Part shown: in pieces, positions 10,288-36,939 of the stretch
Layout: every line of letters begins with the position of its first letter
How positions within the stretch are numbered: the stretch's first letter is position 1
NCBI GenBank assembly: GCA_964632275.1
Contig: CAZWCD010000001.1
Coordinates: 28,721-75,177, forward strand
Direction of reading: 5' to 3'
DNA from: an uncultured Thermodesulfobacteriota bacterium
GTDB taxonomy: Bacteria > Desulfobacterota > WTBG01
Length of the DNA: 46,457 bases
Notes under the pieces: generated by a model
Seen by the model: the letters and a program-made list of their open reading frames with translations, nothing else
What the model was told of the DNA's origin: nothing
The model's database searches: none
Translations under genes and position numbers: made by a program

Positions 10288-12030
10288 TCACCGCTCAATA
10301 AACGTTTTAAGGTGCTCGCTCCGGGCCGGGTGTCGCATTTTCTGCAGCGCTTTCGCTTCAATCTGCCGTATTCGTTCCCTGGTCACATCCATGTCCGTGC
10401 CGACTTCCTCGAGGGTGCAATCGGCCTTTTCGCCCAGACCGAATCGCATCCGCAAGACTTTTTCTTCCTTGGCGCTCAGGGTGGAAAGCAGCTTTTCGGT
10501 ATATTCCTGCAGGCTCTTGTAAATCGCCGCTTTCCCCGGAGAGTCACTTTTCCTGTCCTCGATGTAATCATCCAGTGAAGTGCCCCCTGCATTGCCCACC
10601 GGCTCCGCCAGCGAGAGCGGAGGTTTCGCAACCCGCAGGATGCGCAGCACCTTTTCCACCGGGATCTCGATCCTTTGGGCGATCTCTTCCGGCGTGGGCT
10701 CCCTGCCGGATTCCTGAACCAGCGTCCGCGACGCCTTGATCAGCCGGTTTATGGTTTCAATCATGTGCACGGGTATGCGTATGGTGCGCGCCTGGTCGGC
10801 AATGGCCCGGGTGATCGCCTGCCTGATCCACCAGGTGGCGTAGGTGCTGAACTTGTAGCCGCGCCGGTATTCAAATTTATCAACCGCCCTGATGAGCCCG
10901 ATGTTGCCCTCCTGGATGAGGTCGAGGAACTGCAGCCCCCGGTTGGTATATTTCTTGGCCAGGCTAACCACCAGGCGCAAATTTGCCCTGACCAGTTCAT
11001 CCTTTGCCACCCTGATCTTGATCTCCCCTTCTTCGATGGATTTCACCGCCTTTTTTAAACCGGGGGCGTCAAGGGTGCACTCGGCTTCAATGCGCCTGAT
11101 TTTATGCTGCGCATTGTGTATCCTCTGCTCATACTCCGGCACTTCAGGCGCCTGAACACCGGCAGACCGGTCCGGCTGCTTCTCCCGCTTCATGCCCTGT
11201 CTCAACTGCCTGCGACACTGCCTGATCTGCCCGAGCGACAAACCCGACTTCTCCACGCAGCGGGCAATCTCCCCTTCCGCCACTTCCAGTGCTTCAGCCA
11301 GCCGCTTTAATTTCTGGGTAATATGCCCGATCTGGCCCTTATGCAGATTAATGCCCTGGAGCAGGTTGACAATAGTTTCGCCGGTCTCATTGATGGTGCG
11401 CAGGAGCGCCCGCTGCCGGTTCACGGGTATGGTCTTTTGATCAAGCCGTCGCTTGAGCAGCGCTCTTTTCTGATCATACTTTTTGATCTTTTCGATCAAG
11501 CAGAGCACCTTGCGGGTATAGTACCCTTCATCAATTTCCATCTCATCATCGTCCAGCCCGTTGACAATCGCCCGCACGGAAATCTCGGCCGCCGTCAGCC
11601 GTTTTCCTATGCGTATAACTTCACTGACCGTCAGAGGGGTATTCACAATCACCCGCGCAATATCTCTTTCACCTTCCTCCACCCGCTTTACAATTTCAAC
11701 TTCCCGCTCCCGATCAATCAGCGATATGGGGCGGATCTGCTGCAGATACATCACCAGCGGATCGTCGGTTGATTCGGCAGATTCCGTCTCAAGCTCTTCT
11801 TCAGTATCTTCATCGAATTGCTCCGGGTTGTTTTGCCCGGCAGTCCATGAATTCTGCCCATTCCTCGTCCCGCCAGGGACGGTCAAATCCCGGTCATCGG
11901 CTCCCATAAGCAAATTATCAATCAAAACATTTTCCGGCAGGGAAACATCAGCGGGTTCATCCACCGCCAGTCCAGCAGAACCTTTCTTTACGGTCACAGA
12001 TTTGTCCCTTAGATTGGTTTGCTTTTTCAA
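10288..12030 (-). CDS. rpoD: RNA polymerase primary sigma factor RpoD
   Basis: Region 2 '[32 protein letters not shown]' and region 4.2 '[30 protein letters not shown]'. Start set to the TTG at 12030, preceded by AAGGAG 7 nt upstream. The 34 extra Cys/Tyr-rich codons in the ORF track look non-native. Confidence 0.93.
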
Positions 12031-12440
12031 GTAGCTGCTCCTTTTGATGTTAGGATTTATATGGGAGTGACAAACCCAACAATAAAGGTTGACGACATAG
12101 CAATAACATTCGTTAAGCAATCCTAATACCAAGAATATAATTTGTATTATTATTGGCTTTATAATAATTAAGATATTGATTTATATTGTTAATTATTAAG
12201 GTGTCGTAAAATCAAACTGGTGAATGAAGTACCCTGTTTTGCTCTTTTACGTCCATGAAAATCCCGCATTGTAAAAATGTTAGGAATAACAGTAGATTAC
12301 GCCTGCACCCTCGCGCACAAACCATGCATATCGAACCCCTGATTGCGTATATAGTTATTTTTAATGGGATAATTTTTTCAGATTCCCTGACATTGCCAAG
12401 AGGAAGCGGTGGCATCGATGATGTAAAAGGACTTATAAAT

Positions 12441-12468
12441 GTAAGGGCGACCGGCCGGTCGCCCTTAC
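12441..12468. terminator. perfect 14-bp-arm GC-rich palindrome (possible second or bidirectional terminator)
   Basis: GTAAGGGCGACCGG/CCGGTCGCCCTTAC with no spacer, in the rpoD / hdr-operon intergenic region. Confidence 0.35.
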
Positions 12469-12480
12469 ACGGTTTGCAAG

Positions 12481-12518
12481 AAATTAAAACCCCTCGAACC
12501 TATGGCAAGGTGAGGGGT
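12481..12518 (-). terminator. intrinsic terminator candidate for the hdr...moaD-like operon
   Basis: On the minus strand: ACCCCTC-ACCT-tgccat-AGGT-tc-GAGGGGT followed by TTTAATTTCTT. It lies about 160 nt downstream of the MoaD-like stop. Confidence 0.5.
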
Positions 12519-12679
12519 CTCAATATAAAGTGCGCATTCAGAAGAGAACGAGATTTCTTACCGCTGCTGTTTGTTGAAAAAGGTTATGCGGGGTTTAGGG
12601 TGCAGAACTCCTTGTTTTGCTTATTTCTTCCGGCTACCGTTTTCAATCTGCAATCCGCATTCCGAAATCCGCAATAATC

Positions 12680-12964
12680 TTATCCCCCGTCAAAGGGAAG
12701 CATGATGGTAACGGTATCGCCCGCTCGAAGCGGGGTGGAAAGATCCGCCACGGAACGGCAGGTTTTGTCATTGACCAGCATTAAAAAGGGAACAATCGCC
12801 CCGGTGGTTCTGTCCTTTATCTGACGCTCAAAGGCCTTCCCGTAGGCCCGGCACAAATCATCCAGCAGGTATCCCAGGGTGGCGTCGTCTTTCGTCTCAT
12901 GCTCAATTTCCGGTTTACCCACAATGTCCCGCAAAGTGGCAAAGGTTTTAATCTTCAGTTTCAT
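12680..12964 (-). CDS. MoaD/ThiS-family ubiquitin-like small protein (C-terminal Gly-Gly)
   Basis: 94 aa. 'MKLKIKTFATLRDIVG...' beta-grasp pattern, ending in '...TIMLPFDGG' as sulfur-carrier proteins do. Confidence 0.75.
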   Translation of the reverse strand: MKLKIKTFATLRDIVGKPEIEHETKDDATLGYLLDDLCRAYGKAFERQIKDRTTGAIVPFLMLVNDKTCRSVADLSTPLRAGDTVTIMLPFDGG

Positions 12965-13023
12965 CGGGATCTCCGCTCCGCCTGCTGTTCACCGCGTTTG
13001 TGATCGGTTGAAGCATCCATCCA

Positions 13024-14076
13024 TCAGGCCAGCCGGTCCGCCAGAAAGCTGGTGATGTCCTGCACCGCAACCTTAAACTCTTTCAGCGGGGGCTTCTCGT
13101 TCAGCACACAATTAAGGTGCGCCAGGCATTTGGTGCAGGCAGTCAGCAGTGTGGCCGCGCCGGTCTGCTCGGCCTCTTCAAGCTTCTTGACCAGAAGCGC
13201 CTTGGATTCGGTTGAACATCCAAGCCAGGCGGAGATGCCGCAGCACTGGCAGTCCTCGCGGCTGTTTTCCAGCTCGGCCACCCGCACTCCCTTCACCGAG
13301 GCGAGGAGGTTGCGCGGGGGATCAAAGACCTGCAGGTGCCTGCCCAGCCGGCAGGGATCGTGATAGGTGACCGTTCCCTCTCCCTTGAAGGAAAGCTTGC
13401 CGAGGTGGCGCTCCAGAAACTGGCTGATGTGCAGCACTTCGACATCCAGGGAATAGTCGACGGCAAAAGTGCGGGTGCATTCGGCGCAGCTGGCCACCAG
13501 GGTCTTGATGCCGCTCTCCTGAATCGCCCGGGTGTTGAGCCGGCGCAGCCCGTCAAATGCCTCCTGGTCGCCCTGCCACAGCTCGTCATGGCCGCAGCAC
13601 TTAAGGCCCATCACCCGCGGGGTCACCCCTGCCGCGTTCATCAGCTTTAATGCCGACTCCCCGATGGGGCGAAAGCTGGTGCCCACCTCCAGGAACGAAT
13701 CAAGAAAATCAATGCAGCCGGGGAAGTATCCCACCGGACTGGTGTCATCGCGCTCGCCCTTGAAATCGGTGGGCACGCCGCTCTTCCCGGGAAAGGTGAG
13801 CATCAGCCGGGAGACCAGATTGAACACCGACTTGTGGGCGATGCAGTCAACCTTCGGCTTCCGGCCCCGCCGCGCGTCTCGCATAAAATCGAGGTATCCC
13901 ACGCCCTGGGGACAGTACTGGGAGCACTGGCCGCAGGTCAGGCACGACCAGAGGTCGATCCCCTGCTGCGCCAGCAGCGTCTTTTCCAGGTCGCGACGGG
14001 GTGAATACTTGCTCACCAGCCGCTTGGGGCAGATGCCGGTGCAGAGGCCGCATTGATAACAGGATGTGATGCTCAT
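13024..14076 (-). CDS. HdrD-like Fe-S oxidoreductase (HdrC-type 2x[4Fe-4S] N-terminus fused to two CCG domains)
   Basis: 'CYQCGLCTGICP' and 'CLTCGQCSQYCP', then CCG motifs 'LKCCGHD' and 'CQCCGISAW'. Its start overlaps the upstream stop (ATGA at 14073-14076). Confidence 0.8.
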   Translation of the reverse strand: MSITSCYQCGLCTGICPKRLVSKYSPRRDLEKTLLAQQGIDLWSCLTCGQCSQYCPQGVGYLDFMRDARRGRKPKVDCIAHKSVFNLVSRLMLTFPGKSGVPTDFKGERDDTSPVGYFPGCIDFLDSFLEVGTSFRPIGESALKLMNAAGVTPRVMGLKCCGHDELWQGDQEAFDGLRRLNTRAIQESGIKTLVASCAECTRTFAVDYSLDVEVLHISQFLERHLGKLSFKGEGTVTYHDPCRLGRHLQVFDPPRNLLASVKGVRVAELENSREDCQCCGISAWLGCSTESKALLVKKLEEAEQTGAATLLTACTKCLAHLNCVLNEKPPLKEFKVAVQDITSFLADRLA

Positions 14077-15083
14077 GGTTTTATGTCACCTGCACATGCC
14101 CGTGCTTCGAGCGCGCTCGCGCTTGCCTCGGCCAGGCAGAGGGGAATGTCCTTCATGCCGCTGGCCGCACCCGCGACATAGACCCCCGCGGCGGTGGTGG
14201 TCACCGGTGGTTCCGCAATCGCAAAGAAGCCCAGGTCAGTGAGCGGCAGGTGGAATTGGGCCGCCAGCTCACCGGTCCCCGCCGGGGGAACTCCCCCGAT
14301 GGCAAGGACCACCAAATCGGACCGGAGCGTTTGTGATTCTCCGGTAAGGGTGTTTTCCAACTCAAGGGTTAGGCAGTCCTCTGAGGCAGTCACCCCGGAA
14401 ACGCGCGACCGTATAAACCGGATGCCCTGCTCCCGCGCCTCGGTATACAGGTGTTCGTAGAGGTACGGGGTGCGGATGTCCATGTAGAGAATGTTTATCT
14501 CGGCCCCGGGGTACAGCGCTTTTAATGCCAGGGCTTCTTTGATGGCATAGGTGCAGCAGAAGTATGAACAGTAGCGATTGGTCCTGCGGTCCCGCGATCC
14601 CACGCACTGCAGAAAGGAGATTCTCCCCGGCGCGGTTCCCTGCGATGGCCGCAGCACCCTGCCGTTACTCATCATCTCTTCCAGCTCAAAGGCAGTGATC
14701 ACGTCTTTCAGGCGTCCGTACCCGTACTCCTCAATGACCGCGGGGCCAAAGGGATCAAATCCGGTTGTCAGCACCACGCCGCGCACCTCAAGGGCAGCGC
14801 CGTTTCCTGACAGCTCTATGCGATAGCCGGACGGCAGCGCGGTCACCCGCGCTATCTGTCCGCCGGTTATCACCTCAATATTTTCTTTTGCGATCATGGT
14901 CCGGATGGCGTTGAGCAGATCGGCCGCCGAGTCCCCCTTCGGGAACAGCTTATGGAGGCGTCTCAATTTACCCCCCAGTTCTCCTTCCCGCTCCAGCAGC
15001 GTAACCCTGCCGCCCAGCCGGGAGAGATCCAGGGCCGCCTGCATTCCGGTAATCCCGCCGCCCACCACCAAAAAGCTATTCAT
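14073..15083 (-). CDS. hdrA: short HdrA-like FAD/Fe-S protein (paralog 2)
   Basis: 336 aa. 'LVVGGGITGMQAALDL' dinucleotide fold and the HdrA cluster signature 'FLQCVGSRD...YCSYFCCTYA'. Lacks the ferredoxin and N-terminal HdrA domains. Confidence 0.8.
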   Translation of the reverse strand: MNSFLVVGGGITGMQAALDLSRLGGRVTLLEREGELGGKLRRLHKLFPKGDSAADLLNAIRTMIAKENIEVITGGQIARVTALPSGYRIELSGNGAALEVRGVVLTTGFDPFGPAVIEEYGYGRLKDVITAFELEEMMSNGRVLRPSQGTAPGRISFLQCVGSRDRRTNRYCSYFCCTYAIKEALALKALYPGAEINILYMDIRTPYLYEHLYTEAREQGIRFIRSRVSGVTASEDCLTLELENTLTGESQTLRSDLVVLAIGGVPPAGTGELAAQFHLPLTDLGFFAIAEPPVTTTAAGVYVAGAASGMKDIPLCLAEASASALEARACAGDIKP

Positions 15084-15129
15084 GGCTTCCGTTTGTAATC
15101 CCGTCGCCTTCCCGGAGCAGACAATCTAC

Positions 15130-15999
15130 TCAGGCAGGCTTGCACTTTTCCAGCAGCGCGCTGGTTTTGATTTTATGCCCCGTGTCCAGCCCCAGCTCCT
15201 TCGCCGGGATGCCCAGCGCCAGGCCGAGCAGCTGGGTGTAAAACACCACCGGGGTGTTCAGAGTCTTGTTGAATTTTCGCTTGGCCATCACCTGCCCCAG
15301 GTCCAGCTGCCTGAAGCAGCCCGGGCAGTTGACAATGATGGCATCCACCGCCCCTTTCTGTTCCACCGCCTTCACCGCGAAGGCATAGGAGGAATCCTGG
15401 TTGTGCGGCAGCAGCAATGAGCCGCAGCAGTGCTCAAATCCCCGGGGCGGCACGGTGCGCGCGGTGGTCGCCTGCACCATGTCCTCCAGCTTGCGGGGAT
15501 AGGCCGCCTGGTCAAAATGGAGCACGTCGCTCGGCTTCACCAGGTGGCAGCCGTTGTGGCAGCCGATGGCGCAGCCGCTTAAGTCCAGCTTGTTCCGCTT
15601 CCTGATCGCCTCCAGCCCGATGACATCATAGAGTATCTGATGAAAGTGGTACACCCGGGCCTTTCCCTGCACGGCCAGGCCGATTTCCTTCAGGACGGCA
15701 TTGACCTTGTTGCGCACATCTTCCTGTTCCAGCTGATGGGCGGCCTTGCTCAGCGTCCCGAAGCAGCCGTTGCAAAGGGTTACGATGTCCAGGCCCCGGG
15801 CCTCGGCCAGGGCGATATTACGGGCGGCAAAGGCGAGCATGGTGAACCCGTCGATGGGTCCGGCCAGCACCCCGCAGCAGCCAAAATCCTCTATATCAGC
15901 GATGGAGATGTCCAGCTCCTTCATCACCGCCCGGGCCGACAGCTCGTAGTTGGGCGCCTGGAGCGGAATCACACATCCCGGATAAAAGGCGTAGCTCAT
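15130..15999 (-). CDS. hdrB: heterodisulfide reductase subunit B-like (two CCG domains)
   Basis: 289 aa. 'YAFYPGC...FGCCGV' and 'HCCGSLL' CCG-type motifs. Start abuts the hdrC stop. Confidence 0.85.
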   Translation of the reverse strand: MSYAFYPGCVIPLQAPNYELSARAVMKELDISIADIEDFGCCGVLAGPIDGFTMLAFAARNIALAEARGLDIVTLCNGCFGTLSKAAHQLEQEDVRNKVNAVLKEIGLAVQGKARVYHFHQILYDVIGLEAIRKRNKLDLSGCAIGCHNGCHLVKPSDVLHFDQAAYPRKLEDMVQATTARTVPPRGFEHCCGSLLLPHNQDSSYAFAVKAVEQKGAVDAIIVNCPGCFRQLDLGQVMAKRKFNKTLNTPVVFYTQLLGLALGIPAKELGLDTGHKIKTSALLEKCKPA

Positions 16000-16458
16000 T
16001 TACAATCCCTTGCTGAATCCGGTCAGCGCGGCAACCTTTTTATAGTCCTCGGAAACATTCTCCTTCAGGGGAGGGAGCCCGAAGGCCTGCCGCTGATTTC
16101 TGGCGGCGCTGGTGATCTCGCTGTTGCGGCCGCACTTGAGCAGTATTCGGTTCATGTCCTTGATCGATTCCGGCGCAAGACCTTTGGCATAGGCGATGTT
16201 GGTGGCCGCCTGCACCTGGTAGAGCGGCTTCACCTTTTGCGGACAGCGCTCATAACAGTTGTAGCAGGTGGTGCAGTACCAGAGTGCGGGATCGGCAAGG
16301 TCAATCTCCCCGTCCATGATCCGCTTCACGATGGCCCGGACATTAAATTCCGGCAGATAGCGGTTGACCGGGCACCCGCCGGTGCAGGTTCCGCACTGGT
16401 AGCACTCGTAGAGGTTATCGGTGCCGTAATACGTGTGCAGTTCGGGCCGCAGATCCAT
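16000..16458 (-). CDS. hdrC: heterodisulfide reductase subunit C-like (2x[4Fe-4S])
   Basis: 152 aa. 'CYQCGTCTGGCP' and 'CTTCYNCYERCP'. Confidence 0.85.
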   Translation of the reverse strand: MDLRPELHTYYGTDNLYECYQCGTCTGGCPVNRYLPEFNVRAIVKRIMDGEIDLADPALWYCTTCYNCYERCPQKVKPLYQVQAATNIAYAKGLAPESIKDMNRILLKCGRNSEITSAARNQRQAFGLPPLKENVSEDYKKVAALTGFSKGL

Positions 16459-16464
16459 ACCCGT

Positions 16465-17481
16465 CTACTCCTTGCAGATAATGGCCGCCTGTGCCGCGGC
16501 GGCCGTGCCCTCGGCCAGACAGGCCCGTATGTCCTTGGGGCCGCCGGCCGCGCCGGCCACAAAAACCCCTTTGGCCCGGGTAAACACCGGGGCCGGCTCA
16601 CAGGCAAAGAACCCTGATTCCTCGGTTGCAATCCCAAGCGTTTCGGCCATGGATGCCGCGTCGCGCGGAGGCTCCGCGCCGACCGAGAGAACCACCATGT
16701 CCGTCTCCATGAAGCGCAGCGCGCCGTCAAGGGTGTCCTCGTACTGAACGGTCAGCCCGCCGTTCTCCCGCCTGGGCCGCACCGCGGCGGGCTTGCTCCG
16801 GATGAAGCCGATGCCCTTGCGGCGGGCGGTTTCATACTCCAGCTCGGCGCAAAACGGGGTGCGAATGTCCATGTACAGCACCTCCACCCGGCAGCGGGGA
16901 ATCCGCTCCTTGACCTGCAGGGCCAGGTGAACCGCGTACATGCAGCAAAACGCGGAGCAGTAGGTGTGGGTGCGCAGCTCGCGCGAGCCGATGCACTGGA
17001 TGAAGGCCAGCGCGCCCGGCTGCTCGCCGTTTGAGTTTCTGAGCAACCTGTCCCCCTTGAGATTGTCCGCCAGCTCCACGGCGGTAATCACGTCCGGGTG
17101 CCTGCCGAACGCGTAGTGCTTCATGCCTGCGGGATTAAACGGGGTAAAGCCGGTGGCCAGAATGATCGAACGGCACTCCACCTCGCGTGTTCCCTCCGGG
17201 TTCTTGAGCGATGCCTTGAACCGGGGATAGGCACCCCCCAGCGAGATAATCTCGGTGCCGGTGAGCACGGTGACCCGGGATGAGGAAGCGATTGCCTGCG
17301 CCCGTTGTTCGATCAGTTCCGGGGCCGGCGTCCCGCCCCCGAAGGTTGCCCCCAGGGACTTGAGGTTGCCGCCCAACCGATCCTCGCGCTCCGCCAGGAT
17401 AACCGCTATTCCCACGCGCGCCAGGCTGGCTGCTGCCTGCAAACCGGTAATCCCGCCGCCCACCACAAGCACGCTACTCAC
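16465..17481 (-). CDS. hdrA: short HdrA-like FAD/Fe-S protein (paralog 1)
   Basis: 338 aa, GTG start. 'LVVGGGITGLQAAASL' and 'FIQCIGSRE...YCSAFCCMYA'. Its start overlaps the TAG of the read-through mvhD by 8 nt. Confidence 0.8.
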   Translation of the reverse strand: MSSVLVVGGGITGLQAAASLARVGIAVILAEREDRLGGNLKSLGATFGGGTPAPELIEQRAQAIASSSRVTVLTGTEIISLGGAYPRFKASLKNPEGTREVECRSIILATGFTPFNPAGMKHYAFGRHPDVITAVELADNLKGDRLLRNSNGEQPGALAFIQCIGSRELRTHTYCSAFCCMYAVHLALQVKERIPRCRVEVLYMDIRTPFCAELEYETARRKGIGFIRSKPAAVRPRRENGGLTVQYEDTLDGALRFMETDMVVLSVGAEPPRDAASMAETLGIATEESGFFACEPAPVFTRAKGVFVAGAAGGPKDIRACLAEGTAAAAQAAIICKE

Positions 17482-17908
17482 TGGCCGGCACTCCTTCCCG
17501 TTTCATGGGCCCCAGGCCCTTGAGATCTTCAGTAAAATCGCGCATCACCTCGGCGAACTTCCCCCCTTCCGAGGCGGATATCCACTCAAGGCGGAAGCGC
17601 GCCGTCTCGATGCCCATCTGCTCCAGATAGCGGGTGGCGTTCTTTATTCTTCTCTCGGCGTTATAATTACCATCCTGGTAATGACATTCGCCGAGGTGTC
17701 ACCCGGCCACCAGCACCCCGTCGGCGCCGTCGATGAACGCGCGCAGGATCATGGTGGGGTCGATGCGGCTCGAGCACATGACCCGGATGATCCGCGCCGT
17801 GGCGGGATACTGCAGTCGGCTCACGCCGGCCAGGTCGGCGCCGGCATAGCTGCACCAGTTGCAGCAGAACGCGACGATGCGGGGAGTGAAGTTGTGCTGT
17901 TCATTCAT
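17474..17908 (-). CDS. mvhD: MvhD-type (methyl-viologen-reducing hydrogenase delta) protein, probable selenoprotein (UGA at codon 70)
   Basis: ATG at 17908 ('[28 protein letters not shown]...'). In-frame TGA at 17699-17701. Read-through gives 74 more codons ('[13 protein letters not shown]...[17 protein letters not shown]') that align with the Cys-containing MvhD domain of 21855..24290. TAG at 17474-17476. This fills an otherwise empty 217-nt gap in the operon. Confidence 0.8.
17654..17695 (-). promoter_or_regulatory. SECIS-like stem-loop downstream of the mvhD UGA
   Basis: mRNA: UGA-CAC-CUCGGCG-AAUGUC-AUUACCA-GGA-UGGUAAU-UAUAA-CGCCGAG. Two perfect 7-bp helices separated by an internal loop. 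The structure starts 3 nt after the UGA and has a G-rich apical loop. Confidence 0.55.
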
Positions 17909-20900
17909 TGGATACCTTCTCCATCTTGACTGCTGCCTGATCAATCATTGCCTCTATCTGTTCGGTGGTGAAGTGGAGCGGGGAAATGGCTCCCACCGGA
18001 CAGGTCGCGGCGCAGGAACCGCACCCCTTGCAGGAGGCGGGGTTGATCGTCGCCTTGCGCGCATTGAATGCCAGGGACTCCAGACGCACCTTCCGGTCCT
18101 CCAGGCTGATCGCCCGGTAGGGGCAGACCTCTACGCACAGGCCGCACCCCTTGCAGCGCGTTTCATCGATGACCGATATGTTTGCCTCTGCCTCAACCTT
18201 TCCCCGGGCCAGCAGGATCCCGGCGCGCGAGCCCGCCGCATTGGCCTGGGCGATGGTCTCTTCGATGTGCTTGGGATAGTGGGCCATGCCGCAGAGAAAG
18301 ACGCCTTCGGTGGCAAAATCAACCGGGCGCAGCTTGACATGGGCCTCCAGGAAGAAACCTTCCTTGCTCAACGGGACCTTAAAAAGCTGACCCAGCTCCT
18401 TGTTGCTTTCCGGCGGCACGGTCGCCACTGAAAGCACCAGCAGGTCGGCTTCAAGGGAGAGCCGCGCATCAAGGAAGGGATCCCGGGCGCTGATCATCAG
18501 CCGGTCTCCATCAAAACCGGCCTCGGGTTTGTTCTGGAGGGTATAGCGGATAAACACCACCCCTGCGTCGCGCGCCTTCCGGTAATAGTCCTCCTTGAAT
18601 CCGTAGGTCATCATGTCGCGGTAGAGAACATAGACATTGACCTCCGGGTTGCGATCTTTCAGCGTCAGCGCGTTTTTTACCGCCTTGGTGCAGCATATCC
18701 GGCTGCAGTACGGGCGCTCCTCGCTGCGCGATCCCACGCACTGGATCATCACCACGTTTTTTGCCTGCTTGATCCGGGGGCTTTGTTTCTCCAGCTCGCC
18801 CTCCAGCTCTTTCTGGGTGAGGACGCGGCCGTCCTTTCCGTACCCGTATTCATCGGGCTTGAATTCCTGCGCCCCGCTGGCAATGATCGCCGCGCCGTGT
18901 TTGATCTCCACCGGTTCCTTCCCGCCCTTTAAGGCAACGGTTGAGGTGTAGCTTCCCACATATCCGGAGACCTTTTGGAGCTCGGCGCCGGTGTGCACGG
19001 TAATGCGGGGATGCTTCATCACCCGGTCGACGAGCGATGCCAGGTATTCCTGCACATCTGCGCCTTCCAGGGTGCTGTAAAGGGACCGTGCGGTGCCGCC
19101 GAGCTGCGCTTCCTTTTCCAGCAGGAAGACCGAAAAGCCCTGATCGGCAAGGTTGAGGGCGCTCACCATGCCGGCAATGCCCCCGCCGATAACCAGCGCG
19201 GAGGGATTGAGCTCCAGGGTAAGCCGCTTGAGCGGCACAATCAAGCCGGCCCGCGCCACCGCCATGCGCACCAGGTCCTTGGCCTTCTCGGTGGCGGCCG
19301 CTTTATCCTGCTGGTGCACCCAGCTGCACTGATCGCGGATGTTGGCCAGCTCAAACAGGTAGCGGTTCAGTCCCGCCTCCTGGATGGTTTCCTGAAAAAG
19401 CGGCTCGTGGGTGCGGGGCGAACATGAGGCAACGACCACCCGGTTGAGCTTGTGCTCGGCAATGAGCGCCTTGATTTTCTCCTGGGTATCCTGGGAGCAG
19501 CTGTAGAGGTTCTCTTCCGCGTACACCACGTTGGGAAGTTCCCGGGCAAGGGCAACCACCGATTTCACATCCACCACCGAACCGATATTGATGCCGCAGT
19601 GGCAGACAAACACACCGATGCGGGGGGTCTGCCCCGACACGTCCAACTCGGCGGGGAGCTTTTTCTCCTGCACCAGCATCTTGCGTGCGGGACTGAGCAG
19701 GGCCGCGGCAAGGCCGGCGGCGCCGCTTGACTGGGCCACCGTTTCCGGGATGTCCTTCGGCCCCTGGAAGAGGCCGGTCACAAAAATCCCCGGCTTGCTG
19801 GTATCGAGCGGGGAGAGCGTCCCCGAGCTGCAGAACCGGTGCTGGTTGAGATCAATCCCGAGCGCTGCGGCCAGCTCCCTGCTGCTCCGTGACGGCTCCA
19901 AGCCCACCGAGAGCACCACCAGCTCAAACTCCTCCTCCCGTATCTTTCCCTCTTCGCTGACGTACTTTATCAGGAGGTTGCGTGTATCCGGCAGCTCCTT
20001 GACCGACGATACATTGGAGGGAACAAAGCGTATGCCGTGCTTGTCCCGCGCCTCGGTGTAGTATGCGTCAAAGCCCTTGCCGTATGCCCGGATATCCATG
20101 TAAAAAATGGTGATGTCCATTGCCGACGCATGTTCCTTGGCAATGATCGACTCCTTCACCGCGTACATGCAGCACACCCCGGAGCAGTAGCCGTTGCCGT
20201 ACTGAAGGTCGCGCGAACCGACGCACTGGATGAAGGCGACGCGTTTGGGCTCGGCCTTGTCCGAAGGCCGCCGGACGTGTCCCTCATAGGGGCCCGAGGC
20301 CGAAAGCAGCCGCTCGAACTGGATGCTGGTGACCACGTTCTCGTAGCGGCCGTAGCCGAAGGGATATTTCCGGGCCGCATCGTATTCGTCAAACCCCGGC
20401 GACAGGATCACCGCGCCCACCGGGAGGTCCCGCACTTCCTCCTTCATCTCAAAGTTGACCGCCCCGGCCTTGCACACCTTGACGCAGAGCTGGCACTTGC
20501 CCTTGGTCAGGAAGCGGCAGTAGCGGGGATCGATGTGGTAGACATGGGGCACCGCCTGGGGATAGGGGATGGAGATCGCCCGGCGCTGGGAAAATCCCTC
20601 GTTGAACTCGTCGCTCACCTTCGAGGGGCATTTCTCGGCGCAGGCACCGCAGGCGACGCATTTGGCCGGGTCCACATAGGACGGCTTGCGCAGGACGGAA
20701 ACGGTGAAGTTGCCCGGCTCCCCGCTAATGCCGGTAATCTGTGAGTGGGTGAGGATTTCAATGTTGAGATGTCTGCCGCACTCCACCAGCTTGGGTGACA
20801 GGATGCACATGGAGCAGTCGTTGGTGGGAAAGGTCTTGTCCAGCTGGGCCATGGCGCCGCCAATGACCGGAGAGCGCTCCACCAGGTACACGAAGTACCC

Positions 20901-21005
20901 CGCGTCGGCCAGGTCCAGCGACGCCTGCACCCCGCCCACGCCCCCTCCCGCCACCAGGACGGATCCGACTATGGTGCGCTCCCGCGCCGCTTCCGGCTCT
21001 GTCAT
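17901..21005 (-). CDS. hdrA: large double-module HdrA-like flavo-iron-sulfur protein
   Basis: 1034 aa. Module 1 has '[17 protein letters not shown]', '[17 protein letters not shown]', 'FIQCVGSRD...[10 protein letters not shown]' and ferredoxin Cys motifs. The middle has '[14 protein letters not shown]'. Module 2 has '[16 protein letters not shown]' and '[23 protein letters not shown]'. The C-terminus carries '[12 protein letters not shown]' and '[12 protein letters not shown]'. Confidence 0.88.
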
Positions 21006-21198
21006 GCAGCAATCATCCTTCGGTGTGTGAACTGTAGGGTGTGCCTTAATGTGTTGAAATGCTTACAGTATAGCGGGCTGCGGCACAACAAATCGCCATC
21101 GGCAGCCGACACTCAAATCCTTGAGATGATTAACATGCTGCGCCCTTGACTGTCAAGTGCAATCAGAGCAGATAGAACAGACATTTCCGCAGCTTGGC

Positions 21199-21690
21199 TC
21201 AAAACGGGAAGGGTGTTTTCTTCTCTTCGGAACCGGCCGCTTCGGATGTCCCCCAGAACACAAAGCTGACCTTTTGCTCCTGTCCGGTTTCATTGATCAA
21301 TTCATCAAGCGTCATGGTGCCGGCAATGGAGCGGTCGAAAAGCAGGATTCCTTTTGCGGAAAATGCGTAGCGGTAGTGCTTTGTTTGTTTCATGACGGTG
21401 GCGGAAAAGTCCGCCGCGAACATAAGGCCGTCCCTCGTGTAGGTGCCGGAGGATTCCTTGAAGTCAACGCCGGGAATCTGTATCTCGAAGGCGTGGCCGT
21501 CGCTGAAGATAAAAAGGGATGAGGAAATGCTGTGGCCGGGAGAAAGGCTGAGAAAGCCGGTTGAAAACGTCAGGGGAACTGCTGCGCTGGTCCCTGCACT
21601 GCGGCCGCTCTCCTTCGAATCTGCCGCCGGACCCGCCGCAAGGGAACCGCTCTGCAATGCCAGCATCAACAGGCAGAGCAAGGTTCGCAT
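21199..21690 (-). CDS. hypothetical secreted protein
   Basis: Start set at 'MRTLLCLLMLALQSGSLAAGP' (signal-peptide-like). No motif that I recognise. Sits alone between two hdr gene sets, with gaps of about 165 nt and about 190 nt on either side. Confidence 0.45.
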   Translation of the reverse strand: MRTLLCLLMLALQSGSLAAGPAADSKESGRSAGTSAAVPLTFSTGFLSLSPGHSISSSLFIFSDGHAFEIQIPGVDFKESSGTYTRDGLMFAADFSATVMKQTKHYRYAFSAKGILLFDRSIAGTMTLDELINETGQEQKVSFVFWGTSEAAGSEEKKTPFPF

Positions 21691-21854
21691 GCAAACCGTA
21701 CCCGCGTGAGACCAGTGCGATTGCATATTCGCTGTCCGCGTGCATGTTTTGGGAGCACCAGTGATAGACTGGAAGGCAGATAATCTCGCAACGTGCCCTC
21801 CCCCGGCGCTTCAGCACCCTCACATTCCCCCGCTGCGGGCTGCGCACGCTGCGC

Positions 21855-32652: not shown

Positions 32653-33426
32653 ATGCCTGAGGTGCTGATCGAGAACAAGTGTTGTTACTATGGCTTATCC
32701 TGGCGCGCCCCCGAAAGCGGGCCGGCGGCGGTGTGCATTCACGGCTCCGGCTCGGACGGCATTGTCTGGTCATATCAGCTGAGCCGGTTGAGCAGCCGCT
32801 ACCGGATCATCGTTCCCGACCTGCCCGGTCACGGCAGGTCCGAGGGCCTGCCCCTCGACTCGGTGCCGGCATACGCCGCGTGGCTTGAACAATTCTGTTG
32901 CGCGCTTCATCTGGACACGTTTTTTCTGCTGGGCCATTCCCTCGGCGGTGCGGTTGTCCAGGAATACGCCCGCAGCCATCCGCAGCGGGTTCGGGGCATG
33001 GTGCTGGTTGCAACCGGAACTCGCTTTATGCTGTCACGCAGCTATCAGGAGCAGTGCGAAAGCGGTGTGCGGCCCCGGGATGACGTCGCTGCCGATGGAG
33101 AAAACCAGGCAGGGCCGTTTCAAGAAGGCTACGAACTGCTGCGCAGCCAGTGCAGCAGGGCCTTGCATGAGGACCTGATGGCGGCCGCACGGTTTGACAG
33201 CTCGCAATGGGTCGGCTCGCTTGAAGCCCCGGCGCTGGTTATCTGGGGAAACCGGGATGCGATCACCCGGCAGGGTCTGCCCGAAGAGCTGGCCGGGAAA
33301 CTGCCCCGGGGCCGGCTGCGGGTCATTGAAGGCGCCGGCCACGTGGTCATGATTGATGCGCGAGATGAATTTAACCGGCTGGTTGCTGAGTTCATCGAGC
33401 AGCACCGCACGGCGGCCGGAGCATGA
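32653..33426 (+). CDS. alpha/beta-fold hydrolase (BioH/MenH-like esterase or thioesterase)
   Basis: 257 aa. 'VCIHGSGSDG...VPDLPGHGRSEG', nucleophile elbow 'GHSLGG', and C-terminal 'GAGHVVMID'. Confidence 0.85.
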   Translation: MPEVLIENKCCYYGLSWRAPESGPAAVCIHGSGSDGIVWSYQLSRLSSRYRIIVPDLPGHGRSEGLPLDSVPAYAAWLEQFCCALHLDTFFLLGHSLGGAVVQEYARSHPQRVRGMVLVATGTRFMLSRSYQEQCESGVRPRDDVAADGENQAGPFQEGYELLRSQCSRALHEDLMAAARFDSSQWVGSLEAPALVIWGNRDAITRQGLPEELAGKLPRGRLRVIEGAGHVVMIDARDEFNRLVAEFIEQHRTAAGA

Positions 33427-34097
33427 CGGCACCGGCGACCGATCCCCCGACCATTCAAACCTTATTTCCCGACTGCGTCTCCACCAGTTGCTGCAGGATC
33501 GCGGAAGCGGAGGATACCCTTGATCCCGGGGAGCATGCCGCCATTGCGCATGCGGTTGCCGGGCGCCGGCAGGAGTTCATGGCGGGCAGGCATTGCGCCC
33601 GCCGGGCGCTGCAGCAATTGGGGATCGCCCCCGGCCCCCTGCGCAAACGATCCGATGGCTCCATCGCCTGGCCTGAAGGTATTGTCGGTGCGGTATCCCA
33701 CAGCCACATCTGGTGCGGTGCGGCTGTTGCCCGGAGATCTGACGTCGCCGGTATCGGGCTTGACACGGAAACCATCGCTCGCGTTGGAGAAAAACTCTGG
33801 CGCCGGATCCTGACGCCGGAGGAGCGCAGCTGGATTGCCGGGCAGCCGGCGTCAGAGATGCAGCAATGGGCGGCGCTCGTTTTCAGCGCCAAAGAAGCCC
33901 TCTACAAATGCATAGCAGCGCTTGTTCTGCCAAGAATCGGCTTTATGGACGCCGTCATCGTTCCCGGCCCGCCGTCGCAGTCTTTCACGGTGCGCCTGAA
34001 TGAGCCGGTCGCTGCACAGCTTCCCCGGGGACTGGGCCTGCGGGGCCGTTTCTTCTTTTATACCGGCTCGGTCTTCACCGGACTGGTGCTGGCCTGA
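33423..34097 (+). CDS. 4'-phosphopantetheinyl transferase (Sfp/EntD type)
   Basis: 224 aa. 'WPEGIVGAVSHSH...GIGLDTE' and 'FSAKEALYK' motifs. ATGA start/stop overlap with the hydrolase gene. Confidence 0.8.
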   Translation: MTAPATDPPTIQTLFPDCVSTSCCRIAEAEDTLDPGEHAAIAHAVAGRRQEFMAGRHCARRALQQLGIAPGPLRKRSDGSIAWPEGIVGAVSHSHIWCGAAVARRSDVAGIGLDTETIARVGEKLWRRILTPEERSWIAGQPASEMQQWAALVFSAKEALYKCIAALVLPRIGFMDAVIVPGPPSQSFTVRLNEPVAAQLPRGLGLRGRFFFYTGSVFTGLVLA

Positions 34098-34223
34098 AGC
34101 GCCTGATACGGAGCTTTTCAGTTGACATTTTAAGGCGGCTATTCTAGTGTCGTGTCTTCAAAACTCATCATTATAGACCAGCAATAAACCCGTCGTTGCA
34201 AGAATTGTTTTAAAAGGAGGTAG

Positions 34224-35165
34224 ATGCGAATGGCGAAATGGGCTTTTCTTTTTCCGGGACAGGGTTCGCAGTATGTGGGCATGGGCAAGGATCTCAAGGA
34301 TAATTTCAAAGCAGCCGCGGATGTTTTTGCGGAGGCGAACGAGGCCCTGCATGAAGATCTGGCCAAACTCTGCTTTGAAGGTCCCGAGGACGACCTGAAA
34401 CTGACGCGAAACACCCAGCCGGCGATCCTGACGGTGAGCATTGCGGCGCTGCGCGTTTTGCAGGCCGAGGCGAATCTTACTCCCGCCATGGCGGCGGGAC
34501 ACAGCCTGGGTGAGTACAGCGCGCTGGTTGCCGCCGGGGCGCTGCGGTTTGCCGACGCAGTGGCCATCGTGCGCCAGCGGGGAACGTTCATGCAGGAGGC
34601 GGTTCCGGTCGGCGTGGGCGGCATGGCGGCGGTGCTGGGCATGGAGACCGATCAGCTGGAGCAGATCTGCAACGAGAGCGCCGAGGGCCAGTGCGTGGCG
34701 CCGGCCAATTACAACTGCCCGGGCCAGATTGTCATTTCCGGGCACATGGAGGCGGTCCAGCGGGCTGCGGCAAAGGCTGAAGCCGCGGGCGCCAAAAAAG
34801 TGGTCATGCTGCCGGTCAGCGCACCGTTCCACAGCGCGCTGATGAAGCCGGCCGCCGAGAAGCTGGGCAAGGCGCTTGAATCGATCGCGGTGCAGGAGCT
34901 GAAGACACCGGTGCTGTCAAATGTCGAGGCGGATTTTTATCCCTCATCGAAAGAGGTGAAGCGGCTGCTTACCGAGCAGGTTGACCATCCGGTACGCTGG
35001 ATAGAAGAAATGGAAAAGATGATTCGGGAAGGGGTGGACAATTGCGTTGAGATCGGACCGGGCAAGGTGCTGAACGGCCTGGTGCGCAAGATAAGCCGCG
35101 CAACCAAAATCCAGTCCGTTGAAAACCCTGAGAGCATCAAGGAGTTTGTGGCAGGATTAAAATAG
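34224..35165 (+). CDS. fabD: malonyl-CoA:ACP transacylase
   Basis: 313 aa. 'FLFPGQGSQYVGMG', active-site 'GHSLGEYSAL', and 'VSAPFHSALM'. Confidence 0.9.
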   Translation: MRMAKWAFLFPGQGSQYVGMGKDLKDNFKAAADVFAEANEALHEDLAKLCFEGPEDDLKLTRNTQPAILTVSIAALRVLQAEANLTPAMAAGHSLGEYSALVAAGALRFADAVAIVRQRGTFMQEAVPVGVGGMAAVLGMETDQLEQICNESAEGQCVAPANYNCPGQIVISGHMEAVQRAAAKAEAAGAKKVVMLPVSAPFHSALMKPAAEKLGKALESIAVQELKTPVLSNVEADFYPSSKEVKRLLTEQVDHPVRWIEEMEKMIREGVDNCVEIGPGKVLNGLVRKISRATKIQSVENPESIKEFVAGLK

Positions 35166-35201
35166 AATGCCGCAAAAAAGTGTTCCGCGGCGAGCGCGTG
35201 T

Positions 35202-35234
35202 AAAAAAACCGGCCCCCGAAACGGGGCCGGTTTT
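35202..35234. terminator. bidirectional intrinsic terminator between fabD and the ACP-like gene
   Basis: AAAAAAA-CCGGCCCC-cgaaac-GGGGCCGG-TTTT. The A-run and T-run flank a GC stem between convergent genes. Confidence 0.75.
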
Positions 35235-35257
35235 CTGCGTCAGGATTGTGCGGGGGC

Positions 35258-35503
35258 CTACTGGTCAGCCATCATCTTCACCACCAGGTCAACCGCCTGG
35301 TTAAAGGTCTTGACTTTATCCTGTTCATCCTCGTCAAAAAACAGGGACCACTCGTCTTCACACATGGTGAAAAACTCAAGCCGTCCCGATGAGCTCAGTC
35401 CCTGATCCCGCATTGAGGCGTCCGGGTTTATCTCTGCCACCTTGTTGGCCATGGCCCTTTTGAGGAAGCCCATCATTTTGTCCGCTAGTTCCTGTCGTTC
35501 CAT
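35258..35503 (-). CDS. acyl-carrier-protein-like small acidic protein (putative)
   Basis: 81 aa, acidic. 'DQGLSSSGRLEFF' resembles the D-x-G-x-D-S-L phosphopantetheine attachment region of carrier proteins. Starts 50 nt downstream of the aldehyde dehydrogenase gene. Confidence 0.45.
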   Translation of the reverse strand: MERQELADKMMGFLKRAMANKVAEINPDASMRDQGLSSSGRLEFFTMCEDEWSLFFDEDEQDKVKTFNQAVDLVVKMMADQ

Positions 35504-35553
35504 GGTTGTCTCCTTATCCGTGCGATTTTCGCTCGTACTATAATAATTCTATC

Positions 35554-36939
35554 TTACTTCCCGTATTTATCCCAGTGGGATTTGAATAGGGCGTTTTCAT
35601 CGGGCTTGTTTTCCGGAATCGGCGAGGATACCCAGGTGTAGTTGACCATGTGCTTCCAGGTGATGTTTTCCGAGACAATGTTGTTGCCCCAAGTGCCGCA
35701 GCTTAAGGACATGGTAAAGGGCATGCCGTTGGTAAAGGATCCGCTGTTGGCAAGGCACTGCGGCTGCCGGACCATCATCCGGCTGACATGGGCCATTTCC
35801 GCCAGCTCTTTGATCCGGGCCTCATTGGTGCTGTGGATGCTGCAGCAGTGGCCTTCGCCGCGCACGGTCAGGATCTTTTTCAGGTAATCGAGCGCCTCGC
35901 TGAAGGCGGTGAATTTCCACAGGGTGATGACCGGGGACAGCTTCTCGTCGGCAAACTTTTCCGTGCTGACCGGATTCTCCCCGATCACCATGAGGAAGGT
36001 GGTGCTTTCCGGAACGGTGATGCCGGCGAGCTCGGCGATTTTTTTGGCTGACCGCGCCACCACCTTGTCGTTGATGTGTTCGCCGTCCGGCCAGATCGCC
36101 GCTTTCAGCTTCGCTTTTTCTTCCGGCGAGCACAGGTAGCCGCCCCGGGCCTTGAAGCCGGCCAGCATGCCGTCCCATTGTGAGGCATGGATGACCGCCG
36201 AATTTTCCGCCGAACAGGAGGTGGCATTGTCAAAGGTTTTGCTCAGGAATATTTTTTCCGCGGCGTCGTTGACGTCGGCGGTTTCGTCAATAATGCTTAC
36301 CGAGTTGCCGGCCCCGACGCCGTAGGCAGGCTTGCCGCTTGAGTAGGCCGCCTTCACCGACTGGGTGCCGCCGGTTGAGATTACCAGGTCGGCCGCAGCC
36401 ATCAGCGCCTGAATGTCCTCAATGTAGGGCCGTTCCATAACCTGCAGCAGATCCACCGGCGCGCCGACTTTCTCCAGCCCCTTGCGCATGAAATCAACCG
36501 CCAGCGTGCTGCAGCGCCGGGCGATCATGTGCGGAGCAAAAATAATGGCGTTGCGCGTTTTCAGGGCGAAGACGCCCTTCACCATCGGGGTGGCGGTGGG
36601 GTTGGTGCACGGGGTCGGCGCAAAGATGACGCCGACCGGCTTGATCACCTTGAAAATGCCCTTGGCTTTGTCCTCGTCGACGATGCCGGTGGTCTTCACG
36701 CCGGCCATGTCCCGCAGCGCCCCCAGCACCTTGTTGCGGTGCTTGGCCAGCTTGTTTTCATAGACCCCCATCTTGGTTTCCTTGACTGCCATGTCCGCGC
36801 ATTTGGCGGCGTTTTCAGGCTTGATCGCCTCCCAGGCGGCAGCCAACACCATTTCATCAACTTTTTCCTGGGGCCAGTGTTCCACGACGGCCTGGGCCGT
36901 GCGCGCCTTGTCCAGCAGTTGTTGCAGTTCTTCCTTCAT
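35554..36939 (-). CDS. acylating (CoA-dependent type) aldehyde dehydrogenase, SucD/EutE/AdhE-N family
   Basis: Start set to ATG 36939 (RBS GGGAGG). 'FDNATSCSAENS' is the catalytic Cys region and 'LSCGTWGNNIVSENIT' is the C-terminal family motif. 461 aa. Confidence 0.85.
   Translation of the reverse strand: MKEELQQLLDKARTAQAVVEHWPQEKVDEMVLAAAWEAIKPENAAKCADMAVKETKMGVYENKLAKHRNKVLGALRDMAGVKTTGIVDEDKAKGIFKVIKPVGVIFAPTPCTNPTATPMVKGVFALKTRNAIIFAPHMIARRCSTLAVDFMRKGLEKVGAPVDLLQVMERPYIEDIQALMAAADLVISTGGTQSVKAAYSSGKPAYGVGAGNSVSIIDETADVNDAAEKIFLSKTFDNATSCSAENSAVIHASQWDGMLAGFKARGGYLCSPEEKAKLKAAIWPDGEHINDKVVARSAKKIAELAGITVPESTTFLMVIGENPVSTEKFADEKLSPVITLWKFTAFSEALDYLKKILTVRGEGHCCSIHSTNEARIKELAEMAHVSRMMVRQPQCLANSGSFTNGMPFTMSLSCGTWGNNIVSENITWKHMVNYTWVSSPIPENKPDENALFKSHWDKYGK

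Follow-up and report, generated by a model that had tools for sequence, protein, structure and literature searches.

Does a MoaD/ThiS-like protein encoded at the end of an hdr operon carry sulfur for the Hdr proteins, or has its gene come to lie there by another route? The question is raised by a window of 46,457 nucleotides (the whole stretch of DNA analysed here) from an uncultured Thermodesulfobacteriota genome, in which the initial annotation, made from the sequence alone, described an eight-gene cluster closing with a small Gly-Gly protein and suggested that a protein-bound sulfur species could be the substrate or partner of the CCG-domain proteins. For the substrate of non-methanogen Hdr-like complexes, a protein devoted to carrying sulfur would have offered a direct clue. 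We consider it likely that the 94 aa protein is instead a MoaD linked to the aldehyde:ferredoxin oxidoreductase (AOR), i.e., a tungsten-cofactor sulfur carrier, left stranded beside the hdr genes by deletions.

The cluster itself was upheld as described. All eight genes are co-directional on the minus strand, running from position 21005 to 12680 in the order given in Table 1, and by their coordinates three neighbouring pairs overlap (by 8, 8, and 4 nt), one pair abuts, and three are separated by 6, 46, and 59 nt. Strong hairpins were likewise confirmed downstream of the last gene alone: the pair found there has a joint dG of -51.4 kcal/mol (z -8.8) with none of 200 shuffles folding equally well, while a consensus terminator scan inside the cluster returned 14 weak matches vs. 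9.3 +/- 3.0 expected, i.e., chance level. A sigma-70 consensus scan detected no promoter-like site in the 59 nt spacer or before the first HdrA gene, and an Rfam search of positions 12100-21300 returned no family at gathering score. An assembly artefact could be ruled out, because the identical arrangement, including the 59 nt gap, is found in two independent NCBI MAG assemblies as well as in short Logan and ENA contigs. The seven hdr genes and moaD are still probably read as one transcript.

Table 1. Features of the hdr-moaD region, listed in the direction of transcription (positions are those of the window).
Feature	Coordinates	Strand	Supporting evidence
Conserved intergenic element 5' of the first hdr gene, likely promoter/operator region	21114..21157	-	alignment with congener G001
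Double-module HdrA, 1034 aa, C-terminal 2x[4Fe-4S] domain	17901..21005	-	NF040770 HdrA2, 1039 bits
MvhD	17474..17908	-	PF02662, 123/123 positions, E 8e-56 with TGA read as U
Short HdrA, 338 aa, FAD domain only	16465..17481	-	Pyr_redox_2 and related Pfam matches only
HdrC, 152 aa	16000..16458	-	TIGR03290, E 3e-31; Fer4 dicluster
HdrB, 289 aa, two CCG domains	15130..15999	-	PF02754 x2; TIGR03288, E 7e-67, 289/290 positions
Second short HdrA, 336 aa	14073..15083	-	end-to-end with 349 aa short HdrA 6tjr, E 2e-44; NF040770, E 6e-74
HdrD-like protein, 350 aa, HdrC-type dicluster fused to two CCG domains	13024..14076	-	PF02754 x2, Fer4_8/9
59 nt HdrD/MoaD spacer, a deletion scar	12965..13023	-	c2 3' remnant at 12965-12998
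MoaD-type beta-grasp protein, 94 aa, ending in PFDGG	12680..12964	-	PF02597 and TIGR01687 above cut-off
Hairpin pair, likely operon terminator	12439..12524	-	two strong hairpins; UUUUAAUUU directly after the first

The components of an HdrABC/MvhD-type module are all present among the seven hdr products, i.e., two-CCG HdrB and HdrD-like proteins, an HdrC dicluster, an HdrA flavoprotein, and MvhD, and the models TIGR03288, TIGR03290, NF040770, and PF02662 all match, with the NCBIfam equivalog scores of the Hdr proteins all below cut-off. The double-module HdrA aligns with the HdrA of PDB entries 8rvu and 5odc over three stretches (E ~1e-205), and the first of the two short proteins was named HdrA by its likeness to the second, its paralogue. 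The MvhD frame contains a TGA at 17699-17701 (translation "...VAG*HLGECHY..."), which is probably a selenocysteine codon. Together, these genes specify an HdrA/MvhD/HdrBC/HdrD-type flavin/iron-sulfur redox module, one that would be wired to AOR in relatives.

The eighth product belongs with the MoaD/ThiS beta-grasp sulfur carriers by its profile matches, its fold, its C-terminal Gly-Gly, and the presence of an E1 in the genome. PF02597 matches at 36.8 bits (cut-off 22.5, E 5.7e-9) and TIGR01687 (moaD_arch) at 61 bits (cut-off 49.5). The AF2 model has a pLDDT of 91.4 that falls to ~50 in the last residues, a flexible C-terminal tail, and Foldseek retrieved SAMP1 (3po0, TM 0.80) and also MoaD (6jbz and 1fm0). 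The PFDGG end, including G93 and G94, shows no variation across 17 orthologues (32-89% identity), and sequences of this type were found only in uncultured Thermodesulfobacteriota MAGs and one Aminicenantes-labelled MAG. A protein homologue search returned only close relatives (at least 62% identity), which are unnamed or called "MoaD family protein", and the genomic context was read for four of them. That moaD might be a decaying remnant was ruled out: its frame is intact, every conserved residue is present, and its dN/dS against congeners is 0.12-0.15, indicating purifying selection.

Co-occurrence of this gene with hdr clusters in related genomes, which the initial annotation had proposed to look for, was not the prevailing pattern: the orthologous MoaD genes lie mostly beside a tungsten-type AOR and a small ferredoxin-like gene, not beside hdr genes. 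Orthologues at 45-89% identity were found in 26 genomes of the uncultured Thermodesulfobacteriota class, so that the MoaD-like gene spans the class, whereas orthologues of the HdrD-like protein (at least 72% identity) are confined to a single family, f1. The small 2x[4Fe-4S] gene, here called c2, is directly upstream of MoaD in 18 of the 26 genomes. A tungsten-type AOR (identified by PF02730 and PF01314) is also in the same cluster as MoaD in 18, starting no more than 20 nt downstream of MoaD in 11 and, in 7 others, lying upstream of it within one co-directional cluster; the order c2-MoaD-AOR is found in 10. Even the MoaD paralogues of genome G011 (30-33%) are located 60-67 nt from AOR genes. 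The full locus, WD40-Fer4-AOR-FeS-Hdr genes-c2-MoaD, is present in G001, G005, G008, and G012, which represent four genera and two families, and wherever Hdr genes occur on a contig of sufficient length, AOR is found at the head of the cluster. AOR without nearby hdr genes accompanies the orthologues of families f4 and f6, of G003 and G007, and of the Aminicenantes-labelled MAG. Several observations do stand against an AOR-linked reading. MoaD is kept beside Hdr-type genes in seven genomes (families f1 and f3), HdrD-like, c2, and MoaD genes are consecutive in metagenome contigs, and the window, which also lacks the c2 block, contains no AOR gene, so that the AOR link is one of orthology and is not local. 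We would like to note that the ancestral AOR was also considered as a possible BamB, and this was rejected (1aor, E 2e-176, and 9mqx, E 2e-181, vs. BamB 4z3w, E 8e-60).

How, then, did the HdrD-like and MoaD genes come to adjoin? In the congener G001 they are separated by 7.3 kb holding six genes, the last of which, c2, reaches 17 nt into moaD. In the window, the 34 nt ahead of the moaD start codon are identical at 30 positions to the 3' coding end of the G001 c2 gene. As judged from this alignment, the HdrD/MoaD adjacency is a deletion product, because part of the lost c2, its 3' end, survives in the spacer. G002 has the two genes adjoining as in the window. In G003 the deletion is reciprocal, and 38 codons of HdrA remain between its AOR block and c2-MoaD. 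The other end of the cluster tells of a further loss. The conserved element that precedes the first hdr gene, in which a CTTGAC-A-GTCAAG palindrome and a TTGACA box are found, matches at 40 of 43 nt the spacer between hyp175 and WD40 at the head of the AOR locus of G001; it was recognised by this alignment and not by the promoter scan, and it stands directly before HdrA in the window because the WD40-Fer4-AOR-FeS block is missing.

We propose that the ancestral place of MoaD was the tail of a long co-directional locus (WD40, Fer4, AOR, FeS protein, Hdr-type electron-transfer genes, c2, MoaD). One deletion in the lineage of the window removed the WD40-Fer4-AOR-FeS head and another the block ending in c2, and the remainder is the old upstream region, the seven hdr genes, and moaD. 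Because deletions set moaD beside the hdr genes in this way, its product is probably not an Hdr substrate. The C-terminal Gly-Gly would presumably be adenylated by the single ThiF/MoeB-type E1 of the genome and then converted to a thiocarboxylate, from which the pyranopterin of the tungsten cofactor in AOR-family enzymes would receive its dithiolene sulfurs. Such an E1, for which the initial annotation had suggested a search elsewhere in the genome, is indeed encoded on contig C86 (PF00899, E 5e-68) and has an N-terminal Ub-like domain. No second stand-alone ThiS/MoaD-family gene was detected in the genome, in which MoaC and MoeA were found and the AOR C-terminal domain was matched 19 times. 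MoaE (PF02391), the canonical MoaD partner, was found neither in this genome (87.8% complete) nor in its congeners G001-G003 (G001 being 98% complete), and a family-specific MoaE query taken from family member G009 gave no match in these four either; incompleteness or divergence may account for this. Because MoaE was not found in the genus, a classical MPT synthase is not demonstrated, which likewise weighs against the AOR-linked reading, and a tungsten-enzyme-rich genus with no detectable MoaE is a second lead in its own right.

The suggestion that the MoaD-like protein is the substrate or partner of the CCG proteins is not supported, and what the initial annotation had itself named as refuting it was largely observed. 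Against it stand the deletion-made adjacency, the orthologues beside AOR, several of them with no hdr genes nearby, the restriction of the HdrD-like protein to one family, and the AOR genes that, on sufficiently long contigs, head the clusters that do have Hdr genes; a literature search for a MoaD-Hdr link also found no relevant paper. In its explicit form, the protein would ferry sulfur, as thiocarboxylate or persulfide, to or from the CCG sites of HdrB or the HdrD-like protein and thus be the protein-bound Hdr substrate. We regard this as very unlikely, even with moaD being co-directional with the HdrD-like gene, 59 nt from it and with no strong hairpin between, with the same adjacency in G002 and the HdrD-like-c2-MoaD contigs, and with purifying selection on moaD persisting after the loss of AOR in cis. 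The match of the short HdrA to that of the sulfur-oxidiser sHdr (6tjr) also belongs on this side, and sHdr presumably acts on a protein-bound sulfur or lipoate. A related idea is that moaD was kept with the hdr genes after the loss of AOR and c2 as it also serves Hdr-type CCG proteins, in which case a protein thiocarboxylate or persulfide would be the non-methanogen Hdr substrate and Hdr/CCG proteins might even replace MoaE in sulfur handling; we find this most improbable. The initial annotation was right to allow equally for an unrelated cofactor-biosynthesis gene.

Two further explanations leave the Hdr proteins aside, and both could draw on the failure to find MoaE in the genus. The protein might be a SAMP/Urm1-like dual-function modifier, acting in protein conjugation or tRNA thiolation via a single E1, and not dedicated to tungsten. 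Haloferax SAMP1 is its best structural match, but MoaD and SAMP1 folds are barely separable, and the SAMP1 model NF041918 (E 3e-10) reaches 40 bits vs. a cut-off of 60, whereas moaD_arch is above its own. Synteny links the gene to AOR and not to JAMM proteases, E1, or tRNA-thiolation genes, and we consider this proposal exceedingly doubtful. The other explanation, that the protein helps apo-AOR to assemble as a non-catalytic factor or chaperone and lacks sulfur-carrier chemistry, its Gly-Gly an inherited relic, is likewise very improbable. In 10 of the 26 genomes MoaD is flanked by c2 and AOR, which would suit such a role; the invariance of the PFDGG end across such divergent orthologues, the E1 in the genome, and the selection holding moaD here with neither AOR nor c2 in cis speak against it.

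On this comparative evidence, the apparent MoaD-Hdr lead arose because of gene loss, and tracing it to that source should keep a mis-annotation from spreading. Of greater use is the conserved ~20-gene superoperon of this lineage, which combines a genuine AOR with HdrA/MvhD/HdrBC-type modules and points to a coupling of aldehyde/acid redox chemistry with electron bifurcation of the Hdr type.

Compared with known systems, the hdr genes resemble methanogen HdrABC-MvhD (5odc, 8rvu) in their HdrA FAD/Fe-S flavoprotein, MvhD (here probably with Sec), HdrC, and two-CCG HdrB, and differ from it in the tandem double HdrA, the two extra short HdrAs, the fused HdrD-like protein, the lack of a hydrogenase, and the host, a Thermodesulfobacteriota MAG and not a methanogen. 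As with Bam(DEF) of class II benzoyl-CoA reductase, relatives cluster an Hdr module with an AOR-family tungsten enzyme, though theirs is a true AOR and not BamB. The ~340 aa short HdrA, end-to-end with 6tjr, and the two HdrC/B-type units recall sHdr of sulfur oxidisers; the gene order, in contrast, is A-C-B-A-(CB fused) vs. C1-B1-A-hyp-C2-B2 in sHdr, full-length HdrA and MvhD are also present here, and no lipoyl/biotinyl-type domain (Pfam) of the sHdr-LbpA kind was found in any of the eight products.

The MoaD-type protein shares its fold, length class, GG terminus, and moaD_arch score with MoaD of molybdopterin synthase (MoaD2-MoaE2; 1fm0, 6jbz) and archaeal MoaD/SAMP1 (TIGR01687; 3po0, 2m19). 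It differs from these in that its genus has no detectable MoaE and its gene is outside any moa operon. The closest likeness is to AOR-linked MoaD proteins, whose genes were described in a "tungsten cofactor biosynthesis" neighbourhood by Iyer, Burroughs and Aravind in 2006 (PMC1779556), and to AorD/AorE of Aromatoleum aromaticum (compared here by description), as all are small MoaD-type beta-grasp proteins with a GG end and with orthologues beside AOR and a 4Fe-4S ferredoxin-like gene. The purified enzyme does not contain the MoaD-like products of aorD and aorE as subunits (PMC6365974), and the MoaD of the window is likewise not expected to be an enzyme subunit. Adding Aromatoleum aorDE gave recombinant AOR a higher specific activity and, when tungstate was also supplemented, near-full tungsten occupancy (PMC9295118). 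What sets the window apart is that its AOR and ferredoxin-like genes have been deleted, so that moaD follows an HdrD-like gene, and that its product has the distinctive PFDGG end. AOR-linked MoaD has been a known kind since 2006, to which the gene in the window probably adds a further member.

Open reading frame listing and translation of the minus strand across 21005-12680 recovered eight genes, all running in the same direction (see the table below). The initial annotation had described this stretch as an eight-gene hdr operon ending in a MoaD/ThiS-like protein with a Gly-Gly terminus, and its gene calls and gene order held up, with the identical order, including the 59-nt gap before the last gene, found in two independent NCBI MAG assemblies. 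The junctions calculated from the coordinates also agree with that description, i.e., three overlapping pairs (8, 8, and 4 nt), a single abutting pair, and three pairs with gaps between them (6, 46, and 59 nt), as does the placement of terminator-like hairpins after the last gene: two strong hairpins lie at approximately 12439-12524, with a U-run after the first (dG -51.4 kcal/mol, z -8.8), while matches within the cluster are weak and do not exceed the number expected by chance. The in-frame TGA of mvhD falls at a conserved Cys-type residue position (VAG-U-HLGECHY, the U being a stop in the plain translation). Public gene calls cut mvhD down to 69 aa. The hdr genes form a variant Hdr module: HdrBC is accompanied by a tandem HdrA, a MvhD that probably contains selenocysteine, a pair of short HdrAs, and an HdrD-like fusion protein.

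Coordinates of the eight genes and their immediate neighbors in the window
Feature	Position	Strand	Details
175-aa gene	21199-21726		upstream of double HdrA; no family match
HdrA double module	17901-21005	-	1034 aa; NF040770, 1039 bits; PDB 8rvu and 5odc, E ~1e-205, three stretches
MvhD	17474-17908	-	PF02662, whole model, E 8e-56 with in-frame TGA 17699-17701 taken as selenocysteine
Short HdrA	16465-17481	-	
HdrC	16000-16458	-	
HdrB	15130-15999	-	two CCG stretches; TIGR03288, E 7e-67
Second short HdrA	14073-15083	-	end-to-end alignment with short HdrA structure 6tjr, E 2e-44
HdrD-like	13024-14076	-	HdrC-type dicluster and two CCG stretches
MoaD-like	12680-12964	-	94 aa; C-terminus PFDGG; PF02597 passed; TIGR01687 (moaD_arch) passed, 61 bits vs 49.5
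rpoD	10288-12132		downstream of MoaD-like gene

Beyond the 175-aa gene lies a second Hdr-type set, made up of a Sec-containing HdrA-MvhD fusion, an MvhD-HdrD fusion, and a 1126-aa GltD-like protein, and behind it sit 2-oxoacid:ferredoxin oxidoreductase genes. The genome itself (G000), a MAG with 87.8% completeness, comprises 3.07 Mb over 320 contigs, and its relatives are labeled as uncultured Thermodesulfobacteriota or "delta proteobacterium".

We searched 61 related genomes for orthologues of the MoaD-like gene, and up to 20 kb around each was surveyed by tblastn and ORF clustering, with clusters named using Pfam and NCBIfam. Orthologues (45-89% identity, all in one class) were present in 26 genomes, and in 18 of these the gene directly upstream was c2, a small 2x[4Fe-4S] ferredoxin-like gene of 107-116 aa. 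A tungsten-type aldehyde:ferredoxin oxidoreductase (AOR) gene (AFOR_N + AFOR_C, about 606-647 aa) starts no more than 20 nt downstream of the MoaD-like gene in 11 of the 26, which belong to families f4 and f6 plus an Aminicenantes-labeled MAG and have the order c2-MoaD-AOR; 7 further genomes have an AOR upstream, as part of one co-directional cluster with the MoaD-like gene. Two MoaD paralogues in one relative (G011; 30-33% identity) also lie 60-67 nt from AOR genes. In the four genomes of genus g25, the MoaD-like gene has no AOR or hdr gene next to it. The initial annotation had suggested that a protein-bound sulfur species might be the substrate or partner of the CCG-domain proteins; against this link, Hdr-type genes occur in the MoaD-like cluster of only 7 of the 26 genomes, which belong to families f1 and f3. 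HdrD-like orthologues (at least 72% identity) are confined to family f1. In two loci from other lineages (L106 and L110) and one ENA contig, the MoaD-like gene is followed by genes for an Sfp-type PPTase, FabD, and an aldehyde dehydrogenase; the same set lies at 32653-36939 in the window, which indicates that the region has been rearranged.

A fuller version of the locus was read in four relatives representing four genera and two families: G001 (L071 + L034; same genus as the window, 98% complete), G005 (L072 + L037), G008 (L112 + L039), and G012 (L111 + L043). In all four, the locus begins with a hyp175 gene, a WD40 protein, a Fer4 protein, an AOR, and a four-cluster FeS protein, followed by the double-module HdrA and MvhD. 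G001, G005, and G008 continue with short HdrA, HdrC, HdrB, short HdrA, and HdrD-like genes, a position occupied in G012 by an unassigned 3.3-kb stretch instead. Next come an HdrC-like gene, a 996-aa HdrA-like gene, MvhD, a GltD-like gene, and a 294-aa gene, and the locus closes with c2 and MoaD, then rpoD in G001 and G005; rpoD was not seen downstream of MoaD in G012, and the G008 contig ends there. This superoperon of about 20 genes is conserved in all four relatives, the window being a version with the AOR head deleted. The AOR of the ancestral locus is a genuine AOR by its best matches (9mqx, E 2e-181; P. furiosus 1aor, 2e-176; Aromatoleum AorB 8c0z, 2e-165). BamB was considered as its identity and rejected, 4z3w reaching only 8e-60 against 2e-181 for 9mqx. 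The arrangement suggests coupling of an AOR to Hdr-type electron-bifurcation modules.

Two spacers of the window's hdr region retain pieces of the longer locus. The WD40-Fer4-AOR-FeS block (4.5 kb) is missing, but a 43-nt element (21114-21157) survives in the 194-nt spacer before HdrA; it is identical at 40 of 43 positions to sequence between hyp175 and WD40 in G001, i.e., the upstream region of the AOR locus. A perfect palindrome (CTTGAC-A-GTCAAG) within the element overlaps a TTGACA box, and the element may serve as an operator or promoter. The 59-nt spacer between the HdrD-like and MoaD-like genes consists of the sequence just past the HdrD-like stop plus 34 nt (12965-12998) matching the 3' coding end of G001 c2 at 30 of 34 positions; in G001, c2 and moaD overlap by 17 nt, and HdrD-like and MoaD are separated by 7.3 kb and six genes. 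These traces mark the adjacency in the window as derived, a product of deletion. The congener G002 has the same adjacency, and one metagenome lineage has the order HdrD-like-c2-MoaD. In another congener, G003, the order hyp175-WD40-Fer4-AOR-FeS leads into 38 codons left over from the double HdrA (L073:2034-2147, 76% identical to residues 163-200) and from there into c2-MoaD-rpoD. The leftover is the scar of a loss of hdr genes, reciprocal to the deletion in the window.

The MoaD-like gene is intact, keeps all invariant family residues, and is under purifying selection (dN/dS 0.12-0.15 versus congeners). Its AF2 model (pLDDT 91.4) has a MoaD/SAMP1 beta-grasp fold with a floppy GG tail, and Foldseek retrieved SAMP1 (3po0, TM 0.80) and the MPT-synthase MoaD structures 6jbz, 1fm0, and 5mpo. 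G000 yielded no other stand-alone ThiS/MoaD-family gene, whereas G001 and G002 each have an additional ThiS gene of 79 aa adjoining ThiF (directly upstream of thiF in G001). A MoeB/ThiF-type E1, which the initial annotation had proposed seeking elsewhere in the genome, was found on contig C86 (L002:1486-2535, minus strand); it is the single one in G000, and fused to its N-terminus is a Ub/ThiS-like domain (PF14451) that corresponds to the separate 79-aa protein of G001. G000 and its congeners G001-G003 all have MoaC and MoeA. No MoaE (PF02391) turned up in these four genomes of the genus, one of them 98% complete, so the canonical MoaD partner is missing or unrecognizable, and the pterin synthase large subunit may have been replaced or have diverged beyond recognition. 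Each of the four genomes has 10 to 25 or more AOR C-terminal domain matches, and several relatives have 25 or more; the 19 in G000 amount to a tungsten-oxidoreductase repertoire that is unusually large given the small genome size.

That the MoaD-like protein is a substrate of the Hdr proteins now seems highly improbable: its sole support was the adjacency of the MoaD-like and HdrD-like genes, which the deletion scars and the distribution of orthologues account for, and the Hdr-substrate reading is thereby explained away. A SAMP/Urm1-like modifier is also very unlikely, for although SAMP1 is the best structural match, the SAMP1 model score is under the cut-off and the synteny is unsuitable. We likewise doubt very strongly that the protein is a pure AOR chaperone without sulfur chemistry, as the GG end is invariant in the family and the gene is kept in the window without an AOR in cis.

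The MoaD-like protein is instead quite likely a MoaD-type sulfur carrier that serves tungsten-cofactor synthesis and is linked to AOR, a link that comes from orthology rather than from local genes in the window. Deletions left it at the end of the hdr operon, and transcription from the old upstream region probably still includes it. MoaD-type genes beside AORs have been proposed to make molybdopterin for the AOR tungsten cofactor (PMC1779556). The aorD and aorE genes of Aromatoleum aromaticum encode MoaD-like proteins that the purified enzyme lacks (PMC6365974); recombinant AOR gained specific activity when aorDE were added, and its tungsten content reached near-full occupancy when tungstate was supplied as well (PMC9295118). 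The synteny of the orthologues matches this published work, and set against AOR-linked MoaD, a known kind, the window's MoaD-like gene would be a further member.
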